From an uncultured Nitrososphaeraceae archaeon (GTDB taxonomy: Archaea > Thermoproteota > Nitrososphaeria > Nitrososphaerales > Nitrososphaeraceae): a stretch of 64,000 nt of DNA. The stretch is from positions 128,001 to 192,000 of the forward strand of contig CAWGVG010000015.1 in assembly GCA_963825865.1 (NCBI GenBank), in the 5' to 3' direction. Every line of letters starts with the position of its first letter. The stretch's first letter is position 1. The notes beneath the pieces are model-generated. The model was not told the DNA's origin. It worked only from the letters and a program-made list of their open reading frames with translations, and made no database searches. A program made the position numbers and the translations under genes. Positions 1,747 through 22,457 of the stretch are shown in pieces.

Positions 1747-4192
1747 TCACTGTGAAGCAAATACTTGAATACGATAATTATAGAATCAGCTACATACACA
1801 TTACCAGATGAATCAATAGCAATACCACATGGGATCTGAATTGTCCATCGCCTGTACCATAAGATCCCCATTTTGTTATAAAATTGCCATTGCTGTCAAA
1901 CTTTTGTATACGATGATTACCTGAATCAGTTACATACACATTACCTGAAGAATCAACAGCGATACCAGTTGGACGTATCAAATTGTCCATCTCCAGTACC
2001 ATAACATCCCCATTTTGTTATAAAGTTACCATTGCTGTCAAACTTTTGGATACGATCGATTATCAGTATCAGCTACATACACATTACCTGAAGAATCAAC
2101 AGCGATACCATAAGGATTATCAAATTGTCCATCTCCAGTACCTTTAAATCCCCATTTTGTTATAAAGTTACCATTGCTGTCAAACTTTTGTATACGATTA
2201 TTATCATGCATCAGCTACATACACATTACCTGAAGAATCAACAGCAATACCATCTGGATGTATCGAATTGTCCATCTCCTGTACCATTACATCCCCATTT
2301 TGTTATAAATTTACCATTACTGTCAAACTTTTGAAACGATGATTATACTCATCAGCTACATACACATTACCTGAAGAATCTACAGCTATACCCTCTGAAT
2401 ATAAATTGTCCATCTCCAATCGCAGATCCTATAAATTGCCCATACTGTTCTAACTGATAAGTATCCCCATTTTCTAACAAAGGTATACTCATTTGATATA
2501 ACAGGTTTTGTTTGATTGGGCATTGTATGTTGGTATTGATTACTAGCAGCTTTCACAGTAACAGATACAATAGCAGGATTATTACTTGCAGCACCTTTAT
2601 CGTCTTTAACTGTAAGAGAGAATTTCAATGTAGTGTCAGACTGATACAGTTGGAGTGTAAATGTGATGTTGCATGTATTAGCATCATTTAATGTTACAGC
2701 TGGACCTGAAGTCTGCGTCCATGAATAAGATGTTATATTGCCATCTGGATCTCTACTGCCGCTACCATCCAAAGTAACAGTATCACCTGCATTAACTGTC
2801 TGATCTGAGCCAGCATTAGCTGTTGGAGGCTGATTAGGTGGTGGTATATACTTGTCTGTAACTTTAACAGTAGCTGTATTAGTTGCATTTTTGCTATCTG
2901 TAACTGTTAATTCAAATATCATATCTGTGTCTGAAGATATATCTTTGGGAGCTGTAAATGTAGCAATGGATGTATCAGCACCGTTCAATGTAACAGTATG
3001 GTCCACTAGTCTGAATCCATGAATATGTTAATGAATCGCCATATCTGGATCTTTACTTTTACTACCATCCAAAGTAACAACATATCCTGCATTTACTGTC
3101 TGATTGTACCGGCATTAGCTACTGGAGGATGGTTGACAGGATTTACTGTGATTTTGACAGTTGAAATACCTGTTGCATTTTTGTCATCTTTAACTGTTAA
3201 TTCAAATACTAATACTGTATCAGTTGAAACATTGATGGAGCTGTAAATGATGGTGTAGCGGTATTAGCACCATTTAATGTAACAGCTGGTCCTCCTATCT
3301 GTTTCCATGAATATGATGTTATAGTTACCATCTGGGTCTTTACTTTTAGTACCATCCAAAGTAACACTATCACCAGCATTAACTGTTTGATCTAAGCCAG
3401 CATTAGCTACCGGTGGTTGGTTAGGAGGTGGAACATACTTGTCTGTAACTTTAACATCATCTACACCAGTTGCATTTTTATTGTCAGTAACTGTTAATTT
3501 AAACGTCAGAGTTGTGTCAGCAGATATGTTGTTAGAAGGAGCTGTAAAGGTAGCTATTGGATCTATTAGCACCATTTAATATAACAGTAGGACCAGCAGT
3601 CTGCACCCATGAATATGTTAATGTATCGCCACTATCAGGGTCTTTGCTTTTACTTCCATCTAGAGTAACAACATAACCTGGATTTACTGTCTGATCTTCA
3701 CCAGCATTAGCTACTGGAGGGTGGTTGATATGCTTGACTGTAATAGTAACAATGGCATGGATTGTTACTTTCAGCACCCTTGTCATCTTTAGCTGTTAGC
3801 GCAAACTTCAATTGGGTATCAGATGGTACATTGGAAGGAGCTGTAAATGTAGGTGAAGATGTATTAGATCGTTTAATATTACAGCTGGTCCTGCAATCTG
3901 TCATCCATGAATAGCTCAATTTATCATTTGGATCTGGATCAATGGCAACACCAACAAGTGTAACCTTTGAGCTCTCATTTACTGTTTGGTCTGGACCAAC
4001 ATTGGCTATAGGAGGATGATTGACTATAGGTGGTTGCTTTGGATTGGTTGGTTTGAACGCTAATGCTGTATGATAAGTATAAGGAGCATTTGGTAAAGTA
4101 TTATTAAATGATGATAAGGGAAGAAAAACATTACAAATTGCGCTGAGTGTTAAAATTAAAGTTATTAAAGTTGTTTTTGTCTTTACCATCAT
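1747..4192 (-). CDS. Secreted surface protein: signal peptide + 5 PKD/Ig-like repeats + NHL beta-propeller (frameshifted)
   Basis: ORFs 3707-4192, 3532-3786, 3264-3575, 2386-3006 and 1790-2002 carry PP.ANAG.DQTVN.G..VTLDGS.S.DPD..YSW.Q..GP repeats, then [29 protein letters not shown] repeats, ending IQVFASQ*. Confidence 0.85.
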
Positions 4193-4211
4193 CTATTAGA
4201 TGTGTTTTAGT

Positions 4212-4238
4212 TTACTTCTAGTATGATATAAAAGCATC
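4212..4238 (-). promoter_or_regulatory. Putative archaeal promoter (TATA) shared with the paralogue at 9109-9135
   Basis: TTACTTCTAGTATGATATAAAAGCATC is identical at both sites. On the minus strand it contains TTTATA about 35 nt upstream of each ATG. Confidence 0.55.
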
Positions 4239-4519
4239 CAGTTATTTTCCGCATTAGTTAAGACATAGATATCTACAATTAACTCTGTGTTACCATCATT
4301 CACTCCAAATGTAACGTTGAGAAATCAAAGATTGATTAATAACTGTCTAGAGTAGTATTCATATCAGTGAGTGTCTAGAGTAGTATAGGAGTAATATTCA
4401 TATCAGCGCATCAGGTTGTCACATTGTGTGATGAATGACTTATAGTATTGGTATTGATACGGGAGAAAGATTAGCATTTACTCTATTTGTTATTGGTATA
4501 AATCTAAAGGAGAAGAATT

Positions 4520-5881
4520 TTGTTTATCTGTATTTTTAAAGGGTATAATCTAATAATACCGCTCTTTTTTATAGTGATGTTATTATTCAGCAGTATATTT
4601 TCATTTCCAATAAAGTATGTTAATGCACAGTCGAATAGCAACCCTGCTACCATAAACCATGTAACCCAATCTTCGATTCCAAATTCATTTAAGGTAACAT
4701 TTGATGGACTAGAGGCATCATCTCCATGTAATCAATGTACTTTTCAAGCCACAACAACTGGTTCATTTACTTTAACTTTTAAAAGTGCTAACCAATTAAC
4801 TGATAGAGAAGAACTTCCGAAGGGCTCTGACTCTGAACTTGAGGCTGATGGTAAGGGATTCATTTCTATTAATGCTCAAAAAACTGTTGATAAAGAAGAT
4901 TGTAGATTCAAGTTTTCTAATGATTATATAATTAAAGGAAATGCGATCTACAGAACTCCAGTAAAAGGAGATGAACATGACCACGGTGGCATTAATGTGT
5001 ATGATATTCACGCTTATCCTAACGAAGCTTATGCAACGTTAGTAAAAGGAAAGGAATCTATTTGTTATGGTACATGGCTGACCTCTCCTGGTGCTCTATT
5101 AACATGTGATAGTGTTTTTATAAATTTAGCAGTAGGCAGCGGTAAAGTTGAAAAAAATGATGATCAAGGACATAAAGAATGCACACTTCAGTAGTCCTAC
5201 TACTGTTACTACAATGGTACAGGTGTATGCCTAACTACAACTACAACTTCAACTTCAAAGAATCCAGCAACCAACAGATCATCCATGCCACTCTCTTCTC
5301 TTAGAAACGACGCTAGTTGTCCAGAATTAAGTGGAGGTATAATGGGTATCAAGATTCCCAGGAAGTAACAACGTTCAGGACCTTGAATCAGGATTTAGGG
5401 CAAAGGCAGAAAAGTTTATTGATGCACTCAAAGCTGCCTGGAGCTCAAGTAACGATTTCAGCCACAAAAAGACCAGAAGAAAGAGCATATCTTATGCACT
5501 GGTCCTGGATGATAGCAAAAGGACATTACGATGCAAGCAAAGTATCAGCCAAAGCTGGAGTAAATATCAACTGGTGGCATGGAGATCAAGCAAAATCAGA
5601 AGCAGCTGCACAGGAAATGGTAGATGGTTATGGAATTAATAATTTACAAGTAGCCCCATCATTGAAATCCCGTCACATTGAGGGCAATGCCATCGATATG
5701 AGCATTTCATGGTCTGATTCTCTAAAAATTAAAAATGCAGATGGAACAGATGTATCAATAACATCTACCCCTAGAGATGGCACCAACAGAAGAGCTGATT
5801 GCTGTTGGAAAAGTCTACGGTGTAATTCACTTCATAGACGTAAACAAAGACAAGCCTCATTGGTCTACTGATGGTAAGTAG
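4520..5881 (+). CDS. Secreted protein with Cys-rich N-domain and C-terminal M15-like (VanY/endolysin-type) Zn peptidase domain (frameshifted)
   Basis: Signal peptide ending VNA-Q. Stitched C-domain: ELSGGxWVSRFPGS..DL..FR...EKFIDALKAAGAQVTISATKRPEERAYLMHWSW...SRHIEGNAIDMSISW...DKPHWSTDGK*. SxHxxGxAxD plus a distal His is the M15 signature. Confidence 0.7.
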
Positions 5882-6080
5882 AGAATATTTTTTGATAAAT
5901 AAATTCTAGAGGGCTTTACCTTCTTACTATATATGGTATATTGATGTTCCGATTCGTTACTATTATGTTAGCATTGCTATCACTTTGTTGCTTGTGATAT
6001 GATTTGTTTTCCGTGATGACACAATTTTTCTCGTATATGTATGTAGGATCTGTGAATCTTAAATAGTCGAAAAGCACGAT

Positions 6081-6372
6081 AATAGAGAAAATATCTCCAC
6101 TACGTCCACCATCTCCACTTTTGCTTAGTTCGACAAATAGAGCTAAATTAAGGTTCTTTTAGCGGAGATATTGCAATGAAGTATCTCCACCAACTACTGC
6201 AATATCTCCACCATTAACTACAGATTATTGGACATAGATAGAGTGGTGGAGGTATTTGTTATACAGGTGGAGATGGTATATGCGGGGTAAGAATATCTCC
6301 ACCATTTTTGGACTAAATTTGAGCACGGAATCAAGTGTGGTGGAGGTAGTGGACATAGTGGAGGTATTTTAC
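6081..6372. repeat. Iteron-like array of CTCCAC/GTGGAG motifs (copy A); inverted homologue of 16668-16942
   Basis: About 10 motif copies, with 9-bp-period triplets at both ends in opposite orientation (ATCTCCACT ACGTCCACC ATCTCCACT ... GGTGGAGGT AGTGGACAT AGTGGAGGT). Confidence 0.8.
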
Positions 6373-6399
6373 ATACTACTGTAGGACAGTAGCTCTTCT

Positions 6400-6646
6400 A
6401 AATCCTCACCTGGTGAAAAATTCTTAACGTTATTTTATCTCGAGAAAACGACTTTATGGAAAAGTCAAAGAAAGATACAGATATACAATGACAGAAGCTG
6501 ATAACGACAAGCGGCAGAAAAATACCAGGAAGTAGGAAACAAACTTCAGAAGAACAGTGAAGCATATCTAGGTGAATAGAAAACATTACTTAAAATTCAA
6601 TGGTTTGGCTTGCAAGGATACATGATATCAAGTTACACGAACATAA
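6400..6646 (+). pseudogene. Decayed copy of the SSB-like gene at 621-973
   Basis: DNA similarity: AAAGATACAGATATACA, GTAGGAAAC AAACTTCAGAAGA, AAAACATTACTTAAAATTCAA, CAAGGATACA.GATATCA.GTTACAC. Internal stops are present. Confidence 0.75.
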
Positions 6647-6755
6647 AGCAAATCCAAAACCTTTCCCATGTTGAATTCTTGTACATCAATTTAAGATCAT
6701 CATACGCGTAGTTTCCGCCAGCAAATTATTACCTACTTTTAAGGCTCATTTAATA

Positions 6756-9090
6756 TTATTTGTAAGCAGCAAACACTTGGATACGGTTATTCTCAAATTC
6801 AGTTACATACACTGTTTTGTAATCTACAGCAATATCTGCTGGACGATCCAATTGTCCATCTCCAGTACCTTGAGATCCCCATTTTGTAATTAAATTACCA
6901 TTGCTGTCGAATTTCTGAATAATAAAGCTATTGCCAGTTACATACACATTGCCTGTTTTGTAATCAACAGCTATACCATAATCCAAAGTACTAATAAACT
7001 CTCCAGCACCAGAAGAGTCTAATGCAATATTAGTTGGTCCTTGAAACTGATGCTGACCGCCAAACTGTCCGTCATCGTTTCCATGAGATCCCCATTTTGT
7101 AATAAAATTACCATTGCTGTCAAACTTTTGAATACGATAATTATAACTGTCGGCAACGTACACATTACCGGATGAAGGTTCAATAGCAACACCCTCTGGA
7201 AAATTGAATTGGCCATCATCTGAACCCAACGATCCCCATTTTGTAATAAAATTGCCATTGCTGTCAAACTTTTGAATACGATGATTAAAAGCCTCTGTTA
7301 CATACACATTGCCTGAAGAATCTACAGCAACGTCTGTGGGCGAATTGAGTTGTCCATTTCCAGTACCTTGAGATCCCCATTTTCTGACAAATTGATAATT
7401 ATTTGCTGTACCACTGCTTGCTTTGGTTAGACTTCCTGTAGTTGTTGGTGCTGTCGCTGCTGGTGTAGCAGTTGCTTTCACAGTAACGGATACGGTAGCA
7501 GGACTATTACTTGTAGCACCTTTATCGTCTTTAACTGTAAGATTGAATTTCAATATAGTGTCGGATGATACGCTTGGTGCTGTAAACGTTGGTGAAGCTA
7601 CATTAGCATCACTCAATGTTATAGTTGGACCTGCAGTCTGTGTCCATGAGTATGATGTTATATTGCCATCAGGATCTCTGCTACCGCTACCATCCAAAGT
7701 AACAGTACCCACTAGCATTAACTGTCTGATCTTGGCTAGCATTCACTGTTGGTGGTTGATTTGGTGGAGGGACATACTTGGCTGTAACTTTGACATTAGA
7801 AGTATTTGTTGCATTTTTGCTATCGGTAACTCTTAATTCAAATGTCATATCTGTGTCTGAAGATATATCCTTGGGAGCTGTAAAAGTAGCAATAGATCTA
7901 TCAACACCATTTAATACCACTGATGGTCCTCCTATCTGTTTCCATGAATAATTCAATGGGTCATTGTCCGGATCTCTACTTTTGCTTCCATCCAAACTAA
8001 CAGCATATCCTGCATTGACTGTTTGATCTAAGCCAGCATTAGCTCAGGTGGATGATTGACAGGATTTACTGTGACTCTAACAGTGGAAATACCAGTTGCA
8101 TTTTTATCATCTGTGACTGTCAATTCAAATACCAATACAGTATTGGTTGAAATATCTGAAGGGGCTGTGAATATAGGTGTAGCAGTAGTAGCGTCGTTTA
8201 TTATAACAATGGGTCCTCCTATCTGTTTCCATGAATAAGACTTTATAGCACCATCCGGGTCTTTGCTTTTACTTCCATCCAAAGTTACAGTATCTCCAGC
8301 GTTTACAATCCGGTCTGAGCCAGCATTGACTACCGGTAGTTTATTAGGTGGTGGGATATACTTGTCTATAACTTTAACATCGGCTGATCCAGTACATTTT
8401 TGCTATCTCTAACTGTTAATTTAAAAATGAGGGGTGTATCAGCAGATATATTGGAAGGAGCTGTAAAGGTGGCTATTGGAGAACTAGCACCATCCAACTT
8501 AACTGTAGGGCCAGCTATTTGTGTCCATAAATAAGATAATGAATCGCCACTATCAGGATCTTTGCTTTTACTACCATCCAAGGTAACAATATCTCCCGGA
8601 TTCACGACTACTTGATTTTCTTGACCAGCATCAGCTACTGGAGGCTGGTTAACATGTTTGACTGTAACGGTTACAATAGCATCATTACTACTTTTAGCAC
8701 CCTTATCATCTTCACTGTCAATAAAAATTTCAAGTCTCTATCTGATGATACAGTTGGAGCTGTAAATGATGGATTAGTGGTATTACTATTGTTTAGTTTA
8801 ACACCAGGTCCAGATATTTGTTTCCATGAATAACTTAATTTGTTGTCACCAGAGTCTGGATCACTTGCTATTCCATTTAACACAACAGTTGCATTTTCAT
8901 TTACTGTTTGGTTTACACCAGCATTAGCTACTGGAGGATTATTAATAATTGGTTTTAGATTAGTTGGTTTGAATGCTAGTGCTGTATAAGTATGAGTAAT
9001 AGCTGGTAAAGTAGTAACAAGAATAAGACTACAAACTAAACTGACAATTAAAATTAAAGTTGTTATTGTAGCTGTTGTCTTTACCATCAT
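6756..9090 (-). CDS. Secreted surface protein: signal peptide + 5 PKD repeats + NHL propeller (frameshifted)
   Basis: ORFs 8671-9090, 8366-8605, 8028-8282, 7687-7995 and 6756-7742; TALA-FKPTN leader; ends RIQVFAAYK. Confidence 0.85.
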
Positions 9091-9108
9091 CGACGAGATA
9101 TATTTTGG

Positions 9109-9135
9109 TTACTTCTAGTATGATATAAAAGCATC
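9109..9135 (-). promoter_or_regulatory. Putative promoter, identical to 4212-4238
   Basis: 27-nt identity upstream of a paralogous start codon. Confidence 0.55.
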
Positions 9136-9342
9136 AGTACCAGTTCATGTCAAGCAAATAAGAAACATATACATCGACGATCAGCAATGATAGATTTGGC
9201 AAAAATGTCACCTAGTAGTAATTAGCCCAATGTGTAACACAAAATACCTTGTAAATTGACAAAGGTATCTTTAGATCTTACTATATACAAGATTTTTTAC
9301 TACTACCTACTTAACAGCTACTACTACTTTTAAGTCTCAACA

Positions 9343-11344
9343 TTATTTCTGAGGGGCAAATACTTGGATACGACTATTTCCATTATCAGATACATACACA
9401 TTACCTGTTTTAGAATCTATAGCAACATAATTTCGACTCTTAAATTGTCCATCTTCGGTACCATAAGAACCCCATTTTGTTATAAAATTACCATTGCTGT
9501 CAAATTTTTGTATACGGTGATTACTACTATCAGCTACATACACATTACCTGAAGAATCAATAGCAATACCTAATGGACTATCGAATTGTCCGTCTTCAGT
9601 ACCATAAGAACCCCATTTTGTTATAAAGTTACCATTGCTGTCAAATTTTTGTATACGGTTATTGCCGTAATCAGCTACATACACATTACCTGAAGAATCA
9701 ACAGCGACACCTTCTAGGATTGAATTGAATTGTCCGTCTTCGGTACCATAAGAACCCCACTTTGTTATAAAATTACCATTGCTGTCAAATTTTTGTATAC
9801 GGTTATTGCCGTAATCAGCTACATACACATTACCTGAAGAGTCAACAGCGACATCATTTGGAAAATGAGAATTGTCCATCTCCAGAACCATGAGATCCCC
9901 ACTTTGTTATAAAATTACCATTGCTGTCAAATTTTTGTATACGGTTATTGCCGTAATCAGCTACATACACATTACCTGAAGAGTCAACAGCGACATCATT
10001 TAGTTGAATGAATTGTCCATCTCCAGAACCTTGAGATCCCCACTTTGTTATAAAATTACCATTGCTGTCAAATTTTTGTATACGGTTATTGCCGTAATCA
10101 GCTACATACACATTACCTGAAGAGTCAACAGTCAACTCCAGTTATAAGATTGAATTGTCCGTCTTCGGTACCATTAGAATCCCCATTTCCTTACAAATGA
10201 ATACTCATTTGAGACATTAACTTTTGTCTGATTACTTGATGCTGTTACTATTGATGGCTTCTGTACAGCGGCTTTCACCGTGACACTCACAATAGATGGA
10301 TTATTACTTGCAGTACCTTTATCATCCTTAACTGTAAGAGAGAATTTCAATATAGTATCAGATGATACACTTGGAGCTGTAAATGATGTTATTGCAGTGT
10401 CTGCACCGCTTAGTGTAACAGATGGACCGGAAGTCTGCATCCATGAGTATGATGTTATATTGCCATCTGGATCTCTACTGCCACTCCCATCTAAAGTAAC
10501 ATTATCACCAGAATTAACTGTCTGATCTAGACCAGGCGTTAGCTGTTGAAGGCTGATGGGGTGGTGGTATATACTTGTCTGTAACTTTAACGTCATCTAC
10601 ACCAGTAGCATTTTTACTATCTCTAACTGTCAGTCTAAATATCAAATCAGTGTCAGCAGATATGTTGTTTGAAGGAGCTGTAAAGGTAGCTATAGTTCTA
10701 TCAGCACCATTTAATGCAACGTTTGGGCCTGCAGTTTGTATCCAGGAATAGATTAATGGATCGTTATCAGGGTCTTTGCTTTTACTTCCATCTAGAGTAA
10801 CAATATATCCTGCATTAACTGTCTGGTCAATACCTGCATCAGCTATTGGAGGGCGGTTGATATGCGTGACAGTAATAGTAACAATGGCTAAATTGTTACT
10901 TTCAGCACCTTTATCATCTTTAGCCGTCAAGGCAAACTTCAATTGGGTATCTGACGGCACATTGGAAGGAGCTGTAAACGTAGGTGAAGCAGTATCATGA
11001 CCGTTCAATGTTACTGCAGGTCCTGCAGTTTGCAACCAAGAATAACTTAATTTATCGTTCGGATCCGGATCAATGGCAACACCAACAAGTGTAACCTTTG
11101 AGCTCTCATTTACTGTCTGGTCTGGACCAACATTGGCTATAGGAGGATGATTAATAGTAACAGGTTTCGAAACAGTAGTATTATTAGTTGGTTTGAATGC
11201 TAATGCTGTATATTTCTTATCTGTAATATTGAGGATAGCAGTAGATAAAAAAACAATATTACTATAAACTAAAATGACCAAGGCCAAAGTTAATACAACC
11301 AAGAGTTTTCGATCCTTATCCATAAGAAAAGTCTTGATTGCCAT
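9343..11344 (-). CDS. Secreted surface protein: signal peptide + 3 PKD repeats + 6-blade NHL propeller (frameshifted)
   Basis: ORFs 10514-11344, 10174-10596, 9854-10135 and 9343-9891; near-identical ~141-bp NHL repeats. Confidence 0.85.
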
Positions 11345-11771
11345 TTTTTTATCTTATTATTTCCTTGCACGTTTGTTTAGATTTTAATGTTTCAGTATAT
11401 TGTCATCATGACTCGAAACAATATGCAGACTGGCTGAATCAGCTGTTACACTAAATGATTCTGATATTATTTTTAACAAATGATTATTACTTTTGATAAG
11501 ATTTGATTACTATTTGCCCAAAATAGGAGAAAATATTATAACCTCATCTCATTTACAATAGCATATAATGGCAGTCATTAGGAGCAGTCTCTGTTCTGAG
11601 CCATGTTGCCGGAGACTAGCTGATGTAATATACTCCAACAACTGGAACAGTAAAAAATACACTAGCAGCTGCCATTCTAGTTATTATTATCATCGTCATT
11701 ATTGCTTCTATTCTGGTTACACCACAAATGTTTACGGTAAAGATATTCTTAGGAGATGCTGTTGTAGGCTT

Positions 11772-12259
11772 ATGACAATAACAGACAAAAAAGAAAACAT
11801 AATATTAATCAATATTGAATCTACCTCTAAAGAAGAAGAGGATCATGACGAAGACCCAGAAGAGCTAGAACGAATTACCCATAACCTACGAGACGAACTA
11901 ACTGAAATAGATGCAATAGAAAAGGTAGATTTAGTTATCAAAAGAAGGAGAAAAAGCTCCAAAAGGCTCCAAAGCTGGTGCCGAAGTAGTTGCATTGGGT
12001 TCTTTGCTTGTAACTTTAGGGACATCAGCAGTAAGCACTGCTATACCGAATCTTTCTAATGCTCTTCAATCATGGCTTACTCGTCATGAAAGACGTAAAA
12101 TCAGTTTAGAGATTGGAGGAGATAAGATAGAAGTAACAGGCATATCCGATGAACAGCAGGCAGCGGTTGATCGAGTCTTGGATAAGCCGCATAGCATCAG
12201 CAAAGAGAAAAAAAAGGAGAAGTACAGACGGATGGCGCCTGAAAGACGTTTTGCATTAA
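11772..12259 (+). CDS. EACC1-like (effector-associated constant component 1) protein (frameshifted; 3' end uncertain)
   Basis: Stitched: DPEELERITHNLRDELTEIDAIEKVDLV..EKAPKGSKAGAEVVALGSLLVTLGTSAVSTAIPNLSNALQSWLTRHERRKISLEIGGDKIEVTGISDEQQQRLIESW. This fits the EACC1 pattern (G.KG, hydrophobic helix, WL.R, terminal beta hairpin) and lies directly before a caspase. Confidence 0.7.
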
Positions 12260-14590
12260 TCGTAGCCAGCTCGCAATATGTAGATCCAGATCTGCAGAAA
12301 TTGATTGCACCAGCTCAAGACGCTGAAGCATTGGCAAATGTACTACAAGATCCTAACATCGGTGGCTTTGAGGTCAAAACACTGTTAGATGAACCTTCTT
12401 ACAAGGTAAATGAAGAAATCCAGGCATTCTTTAGTGACCGTGGACGAGAGGATCTATTGCTTCTTTATTTTTCGTGTCATGGAATAAAGGATGAAGAGGG
12501 GCAGCTTTACTTTGCTACTTCAAACACTAGCCGTAAGCTGCTAGATGCAACTGCAATTTCGGCTAATTTTGTAAATAGGATGATGTTTCGTAGTCGTTCA
12601 CGCGGCAGCTGTTATTGTTGGACTGCTGCTATAGTGGTGCTTTTGCAAAAGGACTTGTAAGCAGAGCTGATAAAAAAATACATACTGGAGATTACTTTGA
12701 CGAAGGTCGTGGAAGAATAGTATTAACTGCATCAGACTCTATGCAGTATTCTTTTGAAGCAGATACATTGAATGTTGAGGTAAAAGACCCAGGTTCAATC
12801 TTTACTCGTGCCATAATAGATGGATTGAATACAGGAAAGGCTGATCTGGACAAAGATGGCCGAATTTCGTACGATGAACTATATGACTATACATATGATC
12901 GAGTAATAGATGAGACTCCTCTTCAAAGACCAGGTAAGTGGGTGTTTGGTGTAGAAGGAGATGTGATTGTTGCCCGCAATCCCAACTGGAAAGAAGTCAA
13001 CAATAAAGGACCTGTAAAAACAGCCGGGGAGGAAATTGTAACAACAACCACAAAGCCCAAAGAGGTAACAAGCCCTAAAACACCACCATCAGCAGCAGAT
13101 CAACATCACATATCACACCACCACAATCAGATATAGCAAACAAACCTATTCATCAGAAGAAAAATCAACTCCGTCAGCATTAACACCAATAAAAGACATT
13201 ACTCCAACAACAAGGCCATCCAACAATAATAAAAAAAGAGTCATCTCTTCTTACACCACCTTCTGATTTAACCACTACCATTTATAGAAGAAAAAACAGC
13301 CAAGACTGAAAAAAACATAGAGTCAGATATAGAAGAAACAAATAATAAATTCCAAGCAGGCGGTCCGATCATTTACAAAGGATAATACTTTTGTCACTGA
13401 AAGAAGTAGTGGAAATGCTTCTTCTTCTTCGTCATCACAGCCTGTACATGAAAGAAATCTGGCTTAAGCAATCCAACTATATTGTTACCAATTTTAGGAG
13501 GAGGTATCATAGGAGGCATCGTAATTGCTCTTGTTGCAGGTGGAATAATACATTTACCTGGTGGAGGAAATGTACCACCATCAACACCAGCGACTCCGGC
13601 ACAACCACCACCACCACCTACTTCTCTTCTTGCTCCTAACCGTCTACCAGTAGCTAATGCTGGTACAGACCATACAGTCAACGCAGGTGATACTGTTACG
13701 TTAGATGGTACTAAAAGTGCTGATCTTGATGGTAATATAAGGTCATATTCATGGCTACAAACTGCTGGACTACCTGTTACATTAAATGGTGCTAACACAG
13801 CCACACCATCGTTTGTTGCTCCTTCAGATATATCATCTGATCTCTTATTAACCTTCAAGTTGACAGTTAAAGACAACGCAAGTGCTACGAATACAGCCAC
13901 TGTAAATATCACAGTCAAACATGTTACACCAATAATACCACCAGCGTTACCAACACCTGTGGATCATCCTCCTACAGCTACTAACCAATCTGTTACAACT
14001 AACCAGAATACTCCAGTAGATATTACATTAGCAGGAAGTGATCAAGATCAGAATGACACATTGACTGCACATATAGTTACACCACCATTGCATGGAACCT
14101 TAGGTACAATTAACCAGACTACAGGTGTCGTAACCTATACACCAAACCAAGGATTTACCGGAGATGACAGCTTTACCTTCAAGATAAATGATGGTAAAGC
14201 AGATAGCAGCAACACAGCTAAGGTGTCAATAACAGTAAATAACTCTCCAGCAAATAATGGTAATAGTGCTCCTTCTAACCAGACTCAGCAGATATCATCT
14301 TCTAACACTGCTCCCACTGCTACTGACCAATCTATTACAACTAACCTGAATACGCCTGTTGATATTACATTGGCAGGTAGTGATCCAGATCAGAATGATA
14401 CATTAACAGCACTGTAGTGACGAATCCATCTCATGGAACTTTGAGTAATGTCAACCAAGATACTGGTGTTGTAACCTATACACCAAACCAAGATTTCACA
14501 GGAGATGATAGCTTTACATTTAAAGTAAATGATGGTAAAACTGATAGCAGCAATACAGCTACTGTGAATATAAAAGTAGGTGGGGGCTAA
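12232..14590 (+). CDS. Caspase-like (peptidase C14) protease, apparently fused via S/T/P linker and one TM helix to 1 PKD + 2 cadherin/Big_9-like Ig domains (frameshifted)
   Basis: RFALIVASSQY.D..L..L....DA, LLYFSCHG (catalytic His), LLDCCYSG (catalytic Cys), SIFTRAIIDGL.TGKADLDKDGRISYDEL. TM: KKSGLSNPTILLPILGGGIIGGIVIALVAGGII. Then one PKD and two PTAT.QS.TT..NTPVDITLAGSD..HGTL..TYTPNQ.FTGDDSFTFK.NDG repeats. Continuity across 13136-13480 is inferred. Confidence 0.75.
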
Positions 14591-14650
14591 ACAATATAAA
14601 GAGTGGTAATAATACTCCATTAGCTTTACCCAAAATTAGTTAGCGAGCAA

Positions 14651-16517
14651 ATGATAATAACAAAAATATTCAGAAATAAGCAAATGAGAGAGAGATCCCG
14701 CAATTTTCTATTATACTCTTCACTTATTGTTATTTTGTCAGAGCTATTGATATTGTTGCCATCATTTACTACTACTAATACTACTTTACCAAGTATTTCT
14801 AATGTCTATTATAATACAGCATTAGCATTTAAACCAACCAATAAAAATCCATCTATTTTAAGACCACCCATTTCTGTTAATCATTCTCCTGTCAGCTAAT
14901 GTTGGTCCAGACCAAACAATCAATGAAAATGCAACTGTTACACTTGTTGGTGTGGCCATTGATCCAGATCCAAATGATAAATTAACCTATTCATGGATGC
15001 AAACTGCAGGACCTACCGTAACACTGAACCGCCCTAATACATCTTCACCTACATTTACAGCTCCTTCCAATATACCATCCGATACCCAATTGAAGTTTGC
15101 ACTAACAGCTAAGGATGATAAGGGTGCTGCAAGTAACAATTTAGCCATTGTTACTATTACAGTCAAGCATATCAATCGTCCTCCAACAGCTGACGCTGGT
15201 CACTGATCAGACAGTCAATGCAGGTTATGTTGTTACTCTGGATGGCAGTAAGAGCAAAGACCCTGATAGTGGTGATACATTAACCTATTCCTGGGTTCAG
15301 ACTGCTGGTCCTACTGTTACATTAAATGGTGCTGATACATCCATAGCTACTTTTACCGCTCCTAAAGACATATCATCTGACACAGACATGAGATTTCAAT
15401 TAACAGTTACCGATAGCAAAAATGCAACTAATTCTGCTACTGTCAAAATTACAGACAAGTATGTCCCTCCACCCAATCAGCCTCCAACAGCTAACGCTAG
15501 CTCAGATCAGACAGTTAATGCAGGCGATACTGTGACTTTAGATGGTAGCGGAAGTAGAGATCCAGACGGTACCATAACATCATACTCATGGATGCAGACT
15601 TCAGGTCCAGCTGTAACATTGAGCAGTCCATATGTAGCTTCACCAACGTTTACAGCCCCAGGTGTTTCATCTGATACTGAGCTGAAATTCTCACTTACAG
15701 TTACAGATGATAAAGGTGCTGCAAGTAATAATGCTGCCTACTGTGACGGTTACTGTGAAAGCTCCTCCTGCACCGTCGGGTAATATGACATCAGCCGAAG
15801 GTGGTGGTGGTACTAATATGACATCAGCTGCCGCACCATTACCATCGTCTGATGCTACTGCATTATATAATAAAGCTCGGTGATCTTGATAGCCAAGGTA
15901 ACTACACAGGAGCTATAACCTATTTAGACAAGGCTTTAGCTATAGATCCAAATTATAAAGAAGCATTAACTGAGAAAGGTTTAGATCTTAATAACCAGGG
16001 TAACTATGCAGAAGCTATAACCTATTTAGACAAGGCTTTATCTATAGATCCAAATTTCAAAGAAGCATTAAATAATAAAGCTAATGCTCTTGGTAGCCAA
16101 GGTAACTACACAGGAGCTATAACCTATTTAGACAAGGCTTTATCTATAGATCCAAATTTCAAAGAAGCATTATATAATAAAGGTTTTGCTCTTTATAGCC
16201 AGGGTAACTATACTGGAGCTATAAGCTATTTAGACAAGGCTTTATCTATAAATCCAAATTTCAAAGAAGCATTAACTGGTAAGGGAGAAGCTCTTAATAG
16301 CCAGGGTAACTATGCAGAAGCTATAACCTATTTAGACAAGGCTTTAGCTATAGATCCAAATTATAAAGTTGCATTAAACGATAAAGGTTTTGCTCTTTAT
16401 AGCCAGGGTAACTATACTGGAGCTATAAGCTATTATGACAAGGCTTTATCTATAGATCCAAATTTCAAAGAAGCATTAGATAACAAACAAAATGCTCTTT
16501 CTAAGATGGGCCGCTAG
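14651..16517 (+). CDS. Secreted surface protein: signal peptide + 3 PKD repeats + ~6 TPR repeats (frameshifted)
   Basis: TALA-FKPTN leader and PKD repeats as in the NHL paralogues, then 34-aa repeats QGNY..AI.YLDKAL.IDPN.KEAL..K...L. Confidence 0.85.
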
Positions 16518-19848: not shown

Positions 19849-22457
19849 TCAGCCGACACGGTTTCTAAACGCAGATTCCTTTCCAACCCTCTTCAGAATA
19901 TAAGGAATATAAACGCTTTGTCTGACTGAGTCTACGTGTAAAAAGCTCACTCCTTGGGAAAGCCAGCCAAGTAAGTGACTGCGCTCTGAATAATATTTGC
20001 CTATCAAAATGTCATCATTGACTTGCCTTATCTCATCATGAAAGATCCCTCCTGTTGAATCCTGCATTTCTACATGATCTTCCTTTTCGTTAACTATGGC
20101 GGTACCTGCAAGAGCATTGCCAAATACATAATCATTCTTCAAAGCCGTTGTATTTCCGTCTTTGTCAAAATAATATCTGAACTTGAATACAGGCTCACTC
20201 CATATAGAATCTGAAACAAGTCGACCTTCCCAAATTCCTACCATCGATTGCAAGGTAGGTTTCTTCGTCTTGCGGTATAACATTTCATGGTCTTCTATAG
20301 TCATAAACTCAAAAGGATAATTCCTTGACATTGAAAATGTCAACATTTCCCTACCGGCGCTGGGTTTGCCTAGAAAGGCTTTACCAAGTATAGTGTTTTC
20401 ATCTACTATTTTCAAGACATCATAAAATAGATTGTAAGGAGGATCTAGATACTCTAGCAATATCGTTCTACCAAGCCCATCCAACTCCTTGTTACTAGCT
20501 TTGTTTCTGGCAAAGACTGGAACTTCAAAGGGATGAGTTGTTCCCATAATATCCCCAGATTCATTCTTAGTAAATCTTTTCCAAAATCCCCCAAAATAAA
20601 GTGTTAAGGTATTCCGTATGTCAGTATCTCGAGTGAAGATTCCCTTCCAATGTGAGTTATTTGAGATTGTAAGGGTTTCCGGGTCGAATTTCCAATTTGC
20701 TTCTTCTGCTTTATCACTTGCAGCATTGACAAGCGTCTGCACATCAAATTGAGTATTTGCAGAATCAAATAGTTTTGATAGATTATCTCTAAGGCAATAC
20801 ATTGGTTGTGACATAGCACATATATGTCCTAAACCCTTGTTGTTCAAAGAAATATTGTCATATTTATCTTTCCAATCTTTCATTATCCTTGATGCAACTA
20901 TAGAAGCTACTGTCATTACGGTGATCTGTGGATTGACTCCAACTGAGGTAGGAAATACGCTCGCATCACAGACAAATAGGTTTTCAAATCCATGAACTCT
21001 GCAATCTGAATCTACCACGGAGTCAGCCTGGTTTGTCCCAATTTTATTTCCTGACTGAGGATGTGCCGAACCTAAGAGCAGGTTCTTTGGATCATTAAGT
21101 ATTTTGTCAATAAGTTTGAGAATATCTGCTTCATTTTCTACAATGCTCATACTTCTGTGAGAAATAATTATTCTTCTAGCTCCAAGTGCAAACCACATCT
21201 TTCCTAATACTTCAACACCCTTTGCAATTATCCTGAGTTCTTTTTCTCTTGGCTCATAGGTCACACTAACTCTGCCGGTAGATGTAAGGGACACTCTTCC
21301 AATGTTATCATCACGTACTACAATTCCAGCCATCGCATAATTATTGAACCTTTCAATGAGTCTTCTATGCTCACTTATTCCACTAGCGGAAAGTGCGATA
21401 GAAAATTGAAGTAATGGAAGAAATATGCTCTCAATTAGAAACTCTCCAGCATCAAAGTTATGCTCTATTCTTGCTTGATCTGTATTTCTGGTTACACCAA
21501 AATCATGTACCGTGTATGCCATTGGAATTCCCTGGTTACCCTTTATTTCATAATCAAAGTCCCCTATGACTTCAATTCCGGGATGCAAACATAAACCAAC
21601 TCCCGCAGTGTCTTGTGCTATTCCATTTTGAAGAAGGAGTTTAGACGATGCGATGGCTCCTGCACTTACTATGACTATTTTTGCATTCACTCTGATTCTG
21701 TATGTCTTGTTACCGTCAATATTAATGAAATTGCCTTCTACACCTTCTACAACTCCATTTCTATGAACGATTTCTTCGATGATAGCAATTGCAATAGACT
21801 CTCATATCAGAGTCAGGTTTCTTTAATGCCTCATGGATATAGGTTACAAGAACGTTTTGTTTTGTCTCGTAGTGACATCCTATATGGCAGAATCCGCATT
21901 GCATGCAGTTAACACAATTTCTAGAATTATTCCTATGCTCCCTTAATCCAAGCTTTTCTGCACCTTTCTTTAGCATAAGGTTATTTCTATTTAATTCATC
22001 TTCACTCACTTTGGTCACATGGAGAGTGTCGTTTACTTTTTGAAGATGATCTGACCATTCTTCATAGATAAAATTGACGCCAAGTCTATTCCATTCCTCA
22101 CGTACACGTGAAGGAGTATCAAAACATACTGCATCGTTAATTATTGTTGAGCCGCCTAAACAACATCCTTGCGCTATAGCTATTCTAAGGCTATCTACGA
22201 AATTAAAACCTGCATTTTTCCAAAGAAGAGGCATCATATCAATTTCGCGTTGATTCATATCCTTTCCTTCATGATATCCACCTCTCTCAATTAGAACAAC
22301 TTTTTTTCCAGATTCGACAAGCTCTTTAGCAAGAACTGCACCGGCAGCTCCAGATCCTATAATACAAACATCCACATTCTCGACAATGTCATTTTTAATT
22401 ACTTCATATTTTTCATGTCTGTCTGTGAGATGCATCTATTCCATATACTATGCCCAT
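19849..22457 (-). CDS. GMC-family FAD oxidoreductase with long C-terminal extension (frameshifted)
   Basis: DVCIIGSGAAG (FAD), LGGSTIIN, NCVNCMQCGFCHIGC, SAHPQSG, VCDASVFPTSVGVNPQIT; AGGAGG SD before ATG at 22457. Confidence 0.85.

Follow-up and report, generated by a model that had tools for sequence, protein, structure and literature searches.

Does an archaeon carry, at a locus whose reading frames are visibly broken, a two-gene EACC1-caspase module of a kind described from bacteria? The locus in question lies at 11772-14590 of a 64,000-nucleotide stretch of DNA (the window, whose coordinates are used below; positions 128,001 to 192,000 of contig CAWGVG010000015.1, assembly GCA_963825865.1) from an uncultured Nitrososphaeraceae archaeon. 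The host genome, here called G000, encodes an archaeal AmoA (383 bits). On the + strand between 11.5 and 14.7 kb the window has five open pieces in shifting frames (11568-12059, 11995-12660, 12615-13136, 13482-14417 and 14417-14590), in which a sequence-only reading had seen a small EACC1-like gene followed by a membrane-anchored caspase with extracellular PKD and immunoglobulin (Ig)-like domains. Our analysis indicates that the locus is likely to be an EACC1-caspase conflict module, the System 4 of Kaur et al. 2020 (PMC7159879), in an ammonia-oxidising archaeon with an indel-rich draft assembly. In the passages of that paper that deal with System 4, the EACC1 gene comes first (5'), and the gene that follows it (3') encodes an N-terminal caspase domain joined to any of up to 50 alternative C-terminal domains.

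The gene structure can be read from intact relatives. Protein P0152 (787 amino acids, encoded by one open reading frame (ORF)) aligns end to end with 12232-14590, with 672 of 801 columns identical (84%), eight frame changes and no stop codon left after frame tracking, so that this interval is one predicted gene, as the sequence-only reading had supposed; the stop at 13136, which it had suspected of being false, disappears when the frame is tracked against P0152. The orthologues P0151 through P0154, which are 88-92% identical to the window in the C-terminal half of the caspase domain, are all single ORFs that encode a caspase, a linker, one transmembrane (TM) segment and Ig-like repeats. The EACC1-like gene has an intact counterpart in P0253 (151 amino acids; 132 identical residues in 158 alignment columns including frame marks), and intact orthologues are known at 63-83% identity to the window piece. 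The window frame that matches the C-terminus of P0253 runs to a TGA at 12240-12242, and the caspase gene begins with an ATG at 12232, an overlap of 11 nucleotides, as expected of a co-translated pair. EACC1 is therefore a predicted gene separate from that of the caspase; it lies immediately 5' of the latter on the same strand, which is the gene order of System 4. The proposed pair thus exists, with overlapping genes in the window and intact orthologues of both members.

That the window instead encodes EACC1 and the caspase as one fused polypeptide might be argued from the piece 11995-12660, which stays open over the junction, and from the EACC1-caspase fusions present among the proteins of the caspase search (17 of 252). 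We consider such a fusion extremely improbable, since the nearest EACC1 orthologues stop where frame 0 of the window has its TGA, the nearest caspases begin with methionine at the window's ATG, and contigs from another sequencing run (X5, below) have indels relative to the window at 12159, 12189, 12218 and 12226 that shift the frame. The apparent open frame leading from EACC1 into the caspase is an accident of indels. Table 1 lists the features of the two separate genes and of their neighbours.

Table 1. Predicted features of the EACC1-caspase locus and the adjoining surface protein genes
Feature	Position	Strand	Basis or remark
EACC1-like gene	11772-12242	+	~155 amino acids as concept; frameshift-aware alignment to P0253, Pfam
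Caspase gene (caspase, linker, TM helix, PKD, 2x Big_9)	12232-14590	+	~785 amino acids as concept; alignment to P0152
Peptidase_C14 (caspase) domain	12232-13010	+	Pfam and catalytic dyad; DxDxDG loop at 12843-12881
S/T/P/K-rich low-complexity linker	13011-13481	+	collinear with P0152 residues ~262-415
Single Gly-rich TM helix	13482-13556	+	KK on N-terminal side; hydropathy, charge bias
K319L-like PKD domain, predicted extracellular	13659-13916	+	67.9 bits, residues 60-145 of piece
Two Big_9 / cadherin-like Ig repeats	13965-14587 (~13965-14234, ~14311-14587)	+	Pfam
Surface protein: TM anchor, 3x PKD, NHL propeller	9343-11344	-	indel-broken; divergent neighbour, context only
TM anchor, 3x PKD, TPR protein	14651-16517	+	indel-broken; downstream neighbour, context only

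At least three indels fall within the 471 nucleotides of the EACC1 gene (near 11937, 12160 and 12208-12227) and eight within the 2359 nucleotides of the caspase gene (near 12601, 13098, 13151, 13213, 13277, 13365, 13462 and 14412); the linker contains six of these eight together with the false stop at 13134-13136. G000 (4.98 Mb in 62 contigs, marker completeness 81.8%) has stop-to-stop frames of at least 300 amino acids over 21.9% of its length and just one of at least 1000 amino acids. Its rpoB gene (C44:22001-28500), which is open for 1121 amino acids in two complete relatives, is found here as fragments of 305, 116 and 117 amino acids and shows 13 frame changes in 2924 nucleotides on frameshift-aware alignment (858 of 970 residues identical), and its class I aminoacyl-tRNA synthetase genes are likewise split. 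The indel rate in G000 is about one per 200-300 nucleotides, essential genes included. Because rpoB has the same indel density as the EACC1 and caspase genes, we conclude that the frame breaks, the stop at 13134-13136 among them, are sequencing or assembly errors; with indels spread over the genome, that stop and the in-frame EACC1-caspase fusion are therefore artefacts. Programmed frameshifting and an alternative genetic code were considered and are ruled out by the equally broken rpoB and tRNA synthetase genes.

Data from elsewhere were compared with the window at the break sites. Contigs of run X5, a soil metagenome, belong to a close relative, the longest piece having other letters than the window at 36 of 488 bases. 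They differ from the window by indels of 1-2 nucleotides at 11938, 12159, 12218/12226, 13152 and 13212, which coincide, among the rows listed, with five of the seven predicted break sites spanned; a further indel lies at 12189, within EACC1. The fragment P0001 (94% identical, from a different data set) is open across the window's break at ~12601; its own break comes two codons further on. A truly decaying pseudogene cluster, whose frameshifts were genuine mutations of the strain, would account for the at least 11 frame breaks within 2.8 kb, and decayed EACC1 remnants do occur elsewhere in the family, in G050 and G212. We nevertheless judge decay very unlikely here: the essential rpoB gene is just as dense in indels and the synthetase genes are split as well, frame tracking leaves no nonsense codon in a gene with 84% of its columns identical to P0152, and P0001 breaks elsewhere. 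Any gene of G000 that is called split, fused or a pseudogene is suspect and has to be read against intact orthologues.

The caspase domain is recognised by Peptidase_C14 (PF00656) at 39.6 bits on the piece 11995-12660 (cut-off 21.4), and in P0152 at 60.0 bits. The codons of the catalytic dyad are those for His at 12478-12480 (within SCHG) and Cys at 12627-12629 (within DCCYSG), and H82, C131 and C132 are invariant in all 25 aligned homologues, which bears out the intact dyad that had been proposed. All the motifs named by the sequence-only reading are in fact present, including DLDKDGRIS and, after KK, a hydrophobic helix rich in Gly. The first of these belongs to a DxDxDG loop, DLDKDGRISYDEL, in which A203, D204 and G209 are invariant across the clade; the core of the loop, like the dyad, is invariant in all 25 homologues. 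It had been called EF-hand-like; the loop is there and conserved, but the Pfam EF-hand cut-offs are missed (EF-hand_5 19.7 against 25.9 bits, EF-hand_1 17.6 against 25.4, EF-hand_7 17.6 against 30). The loop is a feature of the family and not an acquired EF-hand, and calcium binding by it is possible. A complex of the caspase domain (P0152 residues 1-262) with EACC1 was also predicted; both runs scored 0.00, where the mark is 0.32, and the result is used neither way. We note that G000 has a second, distant caspase gene at C48:70942-71400 (Peptidase_C14 64.2 bits, 32-38% identical to that of the window).

Several points weigh against assigning the upstream gene to EACC1 and the locus to a conflict system. 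The window piece matches the Pfam EACC1 family (PF19953) weakly, at 16.8 bits (cut-off 23.6). Seven EACC1 relatives were scanned, of which four also remain below that cut-off (18.4-20.7 bits, in matches that span profile positions 10-99 of 107) and one, P0260, has no EACC1 Pfam match. None of the PADLOC models matches EACC1, the caspase or any of five neighbouring genes, and recognised defence genes are absent among the neighbours. The X5 contigs derive from another strain than that of the window. Finally, the system has so far been described and tested only in bacteria, and the sole source for a defence role here would be the literature. A six-frame Pfam search of G000 gives no EACC1 match at E<=1, and no EACC1-profile match is found elsewhere in G000. 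The EACC1 identity that had been claimed for the upstream ORF does not follow from its own Pfam score, but it is supported through its orthologues: the other two relatives scanned exceed the cut-off, P0279 (72% identical to the window piece) at 26.6 bits and P0288 (63% identical) at 28.3 bits.

The EACC1 alignment and a structure model bear on the same question. There are 38 standalone EACC1-like proteins (87-153 amino acids) that are 60-91% identical to the C-terminal EACC1 part of the window. G72, L74, T77 and L78 are invariant in a central segment, LGSLLVTLGxSA. Kaur et al. 2020 give as the hallmark of EACC1 a central hydrophobic segment in which Gly and other small residues abound, between alpha+beta parts; the alignment shows such a segment and the model alpha and beta elements on either side. 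A VD motif is near-invariant, with D50 of P0253 conserved in 90% or more of 15 rows. P0253 as modelled by AlphaFold (predicted local distance difference test 70.4, predicted template modelling score 0.66) has a beta-alpha-beta unit (residues 7-51), a low-confidence loop and then a beta-alpha-beta-beta-alpha unit, with D50 at the boundary. The model would fit the lid-plus-effector picture of the Ktedonobacter EACC1, and we infer that the caspase would cut at the near-invariant Asp of VD|L, residue D53 of the EACC1 in the window.

Downstream of the linker, the piece that holds the PKD domain (13482-14417; Pfam family K319L-like_PKD) also matches Big_9 in two stretches (85.9 bits), and the last piece, 14417-14590, matches Big_9 at 44.3 bits. 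Topology was judged by hydropathy, charge bias and sequons. P0151 through P0154 have one TM segment each, of hydropathy 2.57-3.11 (2.57 in P0152). The 15 residues before the segment contain 2-5 Lys or Arg, against 0-1 after it, in all seven relatives examined, and N-glycosylation sequons are denser on its C-terminal side in six of the seven. A single-pass protein is predicted, with the caspase in the cytoplasm and the PKD and Big_9 domains outside; this fits the positive-inside rule, and the charge bias in the relatives supports the N-in/C-out orientation that the sequence-only reading had given. A single strongly hydrophobic segment follows the caspase in 15 of the 29 clade members examined.

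The tail that this segment anchors is variable. Clade members carry PKD + Big_9, Big_9, TPR + Big_9, NHL, PKD + NHL, TPR, TIR + ricin, SIR2-like or pentapeptide tails, and among all relatives there are also FGE-sulfatase, kinase, WD40 and SIR2_2 tails, a variable C-terminus such as System 4 has. Tails differ even between close orthologues, P0152 having PKD and two Big_9 repeats and P0153 and P0154 having Big_9 only, with P0153 96% identical over the caspase domain. Because near-identical caspases bear different tails, we read the tail as the putative recognition part; tail swapping is a signature of such a fast-changing part. The tail of the caspase gene is 92% identical to that of P0152, and its PKD domain is 43-64% identical (50-62% for full-length matches) to the neighbouring PKD domains; as judged from these values, the PKD domain predates the split from P0152. 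Recent gene conversion of this domain from the neighbouring genes was considered and is rejected on the same figures. Scans of metagenome and genome contigs with P0152 found 34 and 36 loci, respectively, all of them matching Big_9 (residues 421-787) and none the caspase.

How such a module would work is suggested by its one characterised member. Sections of Evans et al. 2025 (bioRxiv 10.1101/2025.11.14.688446) report that the caspase domain of the Ktedonobacter system cuts EACC1 at Asp49, that toxicity comes from the C-terminal fragment only, that cut EACC1 makes liposomes leak, and that the sensor is a C-terminal Avs part triggered by a phage tail-connector protein. By homology with this system, the activated archaeal caspase would cut EACC1 behind the conserved Asp at the end of the N-terminal beta-alpha-beta lid, and the freed C-terminal part would oligomerise into membrane pores and kill or arrest the cell, as in abortive infection; the proposal of the sequence-only reading that EACC1 is substrate or effector agrees with these Ktedonobacter results, in which it is both. 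On architecture, the variable C-terminal region would be the sensor, here outside the cell, and a surface event such as virus adsorption, envelope damage or cell contact would cluster the receptor and so activate the caspase by proximity.

The module could also be real and its ectodomain no sensor of danger, with PKD and Big_9 serving only as a tether of the caspase at the envelope, or with the pair acting in self/non-self recognition, or in stress-induced death among neighbouring cells, and not against viruses. The tails do consist of adhesin-like domains, and the caspase gene is located in the genome's main PKD cluster (window 2.5-15.7 kb), which holds 16 of the 28 K319L-like_PKD matches in the 4.98 Mb. 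Parts of Kaur et al. 2020 report a statistical association between the system and multicellularity or a social way of life (650 of 671 organisms), and parts of Evans et al. 2025 (10.1101/2025.11.14.688446) raise stress-response roles for DnaK-fused members. We think this unlikely, however, since the sole characterised member, in what Evans et al. say of it, senses through its C-terminal Avs with a phage protein as trigger, and tail swaps among caspases that are 88-92% identical are what a recognition part that diversifies would show.

If the ectodomain is a sensor, as we prefer, the locus may be one of a larger set: soil ammonia-oxidising archaea might have undergone a lineage-specific radiation of EACC1-caspase modules, with single-pass receptors whose extracellular cassettes (PKD, Big_9, NHL) are exchangeable and come from the pool that also supplies the cell's surface proteins, and which sense a virus or foreign cell at the surface, before nucleic acid enters, to open caspase-gated pores. 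We hold this wider picture tentatively and regard it as rather doubtful. In bacterial gasdermins with an adjoining protease, and in the metazoan death receptor, caspase-8 and gasdermin pathway, a protease frees a latent pore-former from an inhibitory part. The logic here would be the same, a protease-released latent pore-former, and activation of a cytoplasmic caspase by clustering is an analogy to the death receptors; in contrast, EACC1 has no sequence relation to gasdermins and there is no death-fold adaptor. If this wider picture is true, the response would be an archaeal counterpart of signalling from death receptor to pyroptosis. Should the module work as we infer, protease-gated, pore-forming death systems extend from bacteria to ammonia-oxidising archaea, which matter to soil nitrogen turnover and whose antiviral and cell-death biology is hardly known, and the membrane-spanning form, which has Ig-like or beta-propeller domains outside, would be a tractable case for the triggering of prokaryotic suicide systems from outside.

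The likeness to known systems is close. As described in portions of Evans et al. 2025, the EACC1 and caspase-Avs12 pair of Ktedonobacter racemifer shares with the archaeal locus a small EACC1 gene 5' of an N-terminal caspase-like Cys protease, and an EACC1 with an N-terminal lid, a C-terminal effector and an Asp at their boundary; its sensor, however, is a cytoplasmic STAND/Avs NTPase, where the window has a TM helix, a PKD domain and two Big_9 repeats predicted to be outside. The host here, unlike K. racemifer, is an archaeon, and its module is predicted from sequence. Gene order, the constant EACC1 and N-terminal caspase, the variable C-terminus and the TM helices are shared with System 4 as set out in portions of Kaur et al. 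2020. The sequence-only reading had named no case of this architecture in Nitrososphaerota. As such the architecture is not without precedent, since the same portions put the share of caspase proteins with TM helices at 33% or more and note cases of a TM helix with an extracellular PBP domain; those passages make no mention of PKD, Big_9 or NHL ectodomains. The main text of Kaur et al. contains none of the words "thaumarchae", "nitrososphaer" or "PKD", and a literature search found no paper that describes the system in Nitrososphaerota, although supplements, for example the Kaur source data, may list archaeal members. Two things are new in this member of a known system: it occurs in an AmoA-bearing archaeon that is Nitrososphaeraceae-like, and its ectodomain is made of PKD and Big_9 domains.

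Nor is the architecture unique to this genome, given the orthologues P0151-P0154 at 88-92% identity. Caspase matches are present in 23 of the 238 genomes of the family (including the unpublished G116) and EACC1 profile matches in five. Besides G000, a close caspase (59% identity) occurs only in G169, the others being at most 47% identical. G169 has an intact EACC1 gene (137 amino acids) and a caspase gene (660 amino acids, with a pentapeptide + TPR tail) in the same order and 21 nucleotides apart; they are on a 5.2-kb contig that has no PKD gene. The EACC1 relative P0261 is labelled by its source as from a "Candidatus Nitrosopolaris" metagenome-assembled genome. The pair is rare in the family, and its distribution is patchy and includes remnants, as is common for conflict systems.

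G050, a 91% complete genome, has a frameshifted EACC1 with no adjoining caspase (L107, G050:C48, ~8070-8440) that is likely a true pseudogene. G212 has a 42-amino-acid N-terminal EACC1 stub followed by a PKD fragment, beside a gene for a 550-amino-acid NHL-propeller protein (L109, G212:C278, ~3190-3723); this resembles what a deletion would leave of an EACC1-caspase-TM-PKD locus, here in a different genus, and is a hint of synteny with PKD/NHL genes. A third locus (L108, G159:C1:732483-733701) has the reversed order, a caspase fragment (37% identical, with one TAG) and then a weak EACC1-like ORF (E 6e-5).

In a quick, unrooted tree of 78 of the 127 caspase domain rows (all 39 K/N/I/Y/F-rich ones, 14 named bacterial ones and every third of the remainder), the window and G169 group with other low-GC-like rows in a 30-row clade (only 82% in the Shimodaira-Hasegawa-like approximate likelihood ratio test), which adjoins a group that contains Chloroflexi/Anaerolineae and is apart from the actinomycete clade. 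The parts of Kaur et al. 2020 concerned with distribution call the system prevalent among actinobacteria, with sporadic occurrence in proteobacteria. The sequence-only reading had proposed that a bacterial core was acquired and grafted onto the host's own PKD domain; transfer of the module from bacteria is plausible on this tree, which is unrooted, but the graft fares less well, since the PKD domain was already in the ancestor shared with P0152. A sequencing-run search listed 24 runs, all with shares of at most 0.09 and none of them RNA, from which no inference on habitat or expression is drawn.

The PKD cluster around the locus (2386-16517) comprises, as a minimum, two PKD-NHL genes, a PKD-TPR gene and a gene with PKD only, and all of them encode an N-terminal anchor of their own. 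The NHL propeller of the neighbours is 57-69% identical to NHL tails on caspases elsewhere, and this resemblance suggests that caspase tails and neighbouring surface proteins may draw on a shared pool of ectodomain cassettes. The sequence-only reading had put forward the flanking PKD-stalk proteins as possible co-receptors, a role that this resemblance does not demonstrate. Within the 427-nucleotide divergent intergenic region, a short hydrophobic open frame upstream of EACC1 (11600-11770) could be a small membrane protein or noise. No tRNA gene is found within the window. At 19849-22435 on the - strand a GMC oxidoreductase is divided between two ORFs (GMC_oxred_N and GMC_oxred_C), which is probably another indel artefact.

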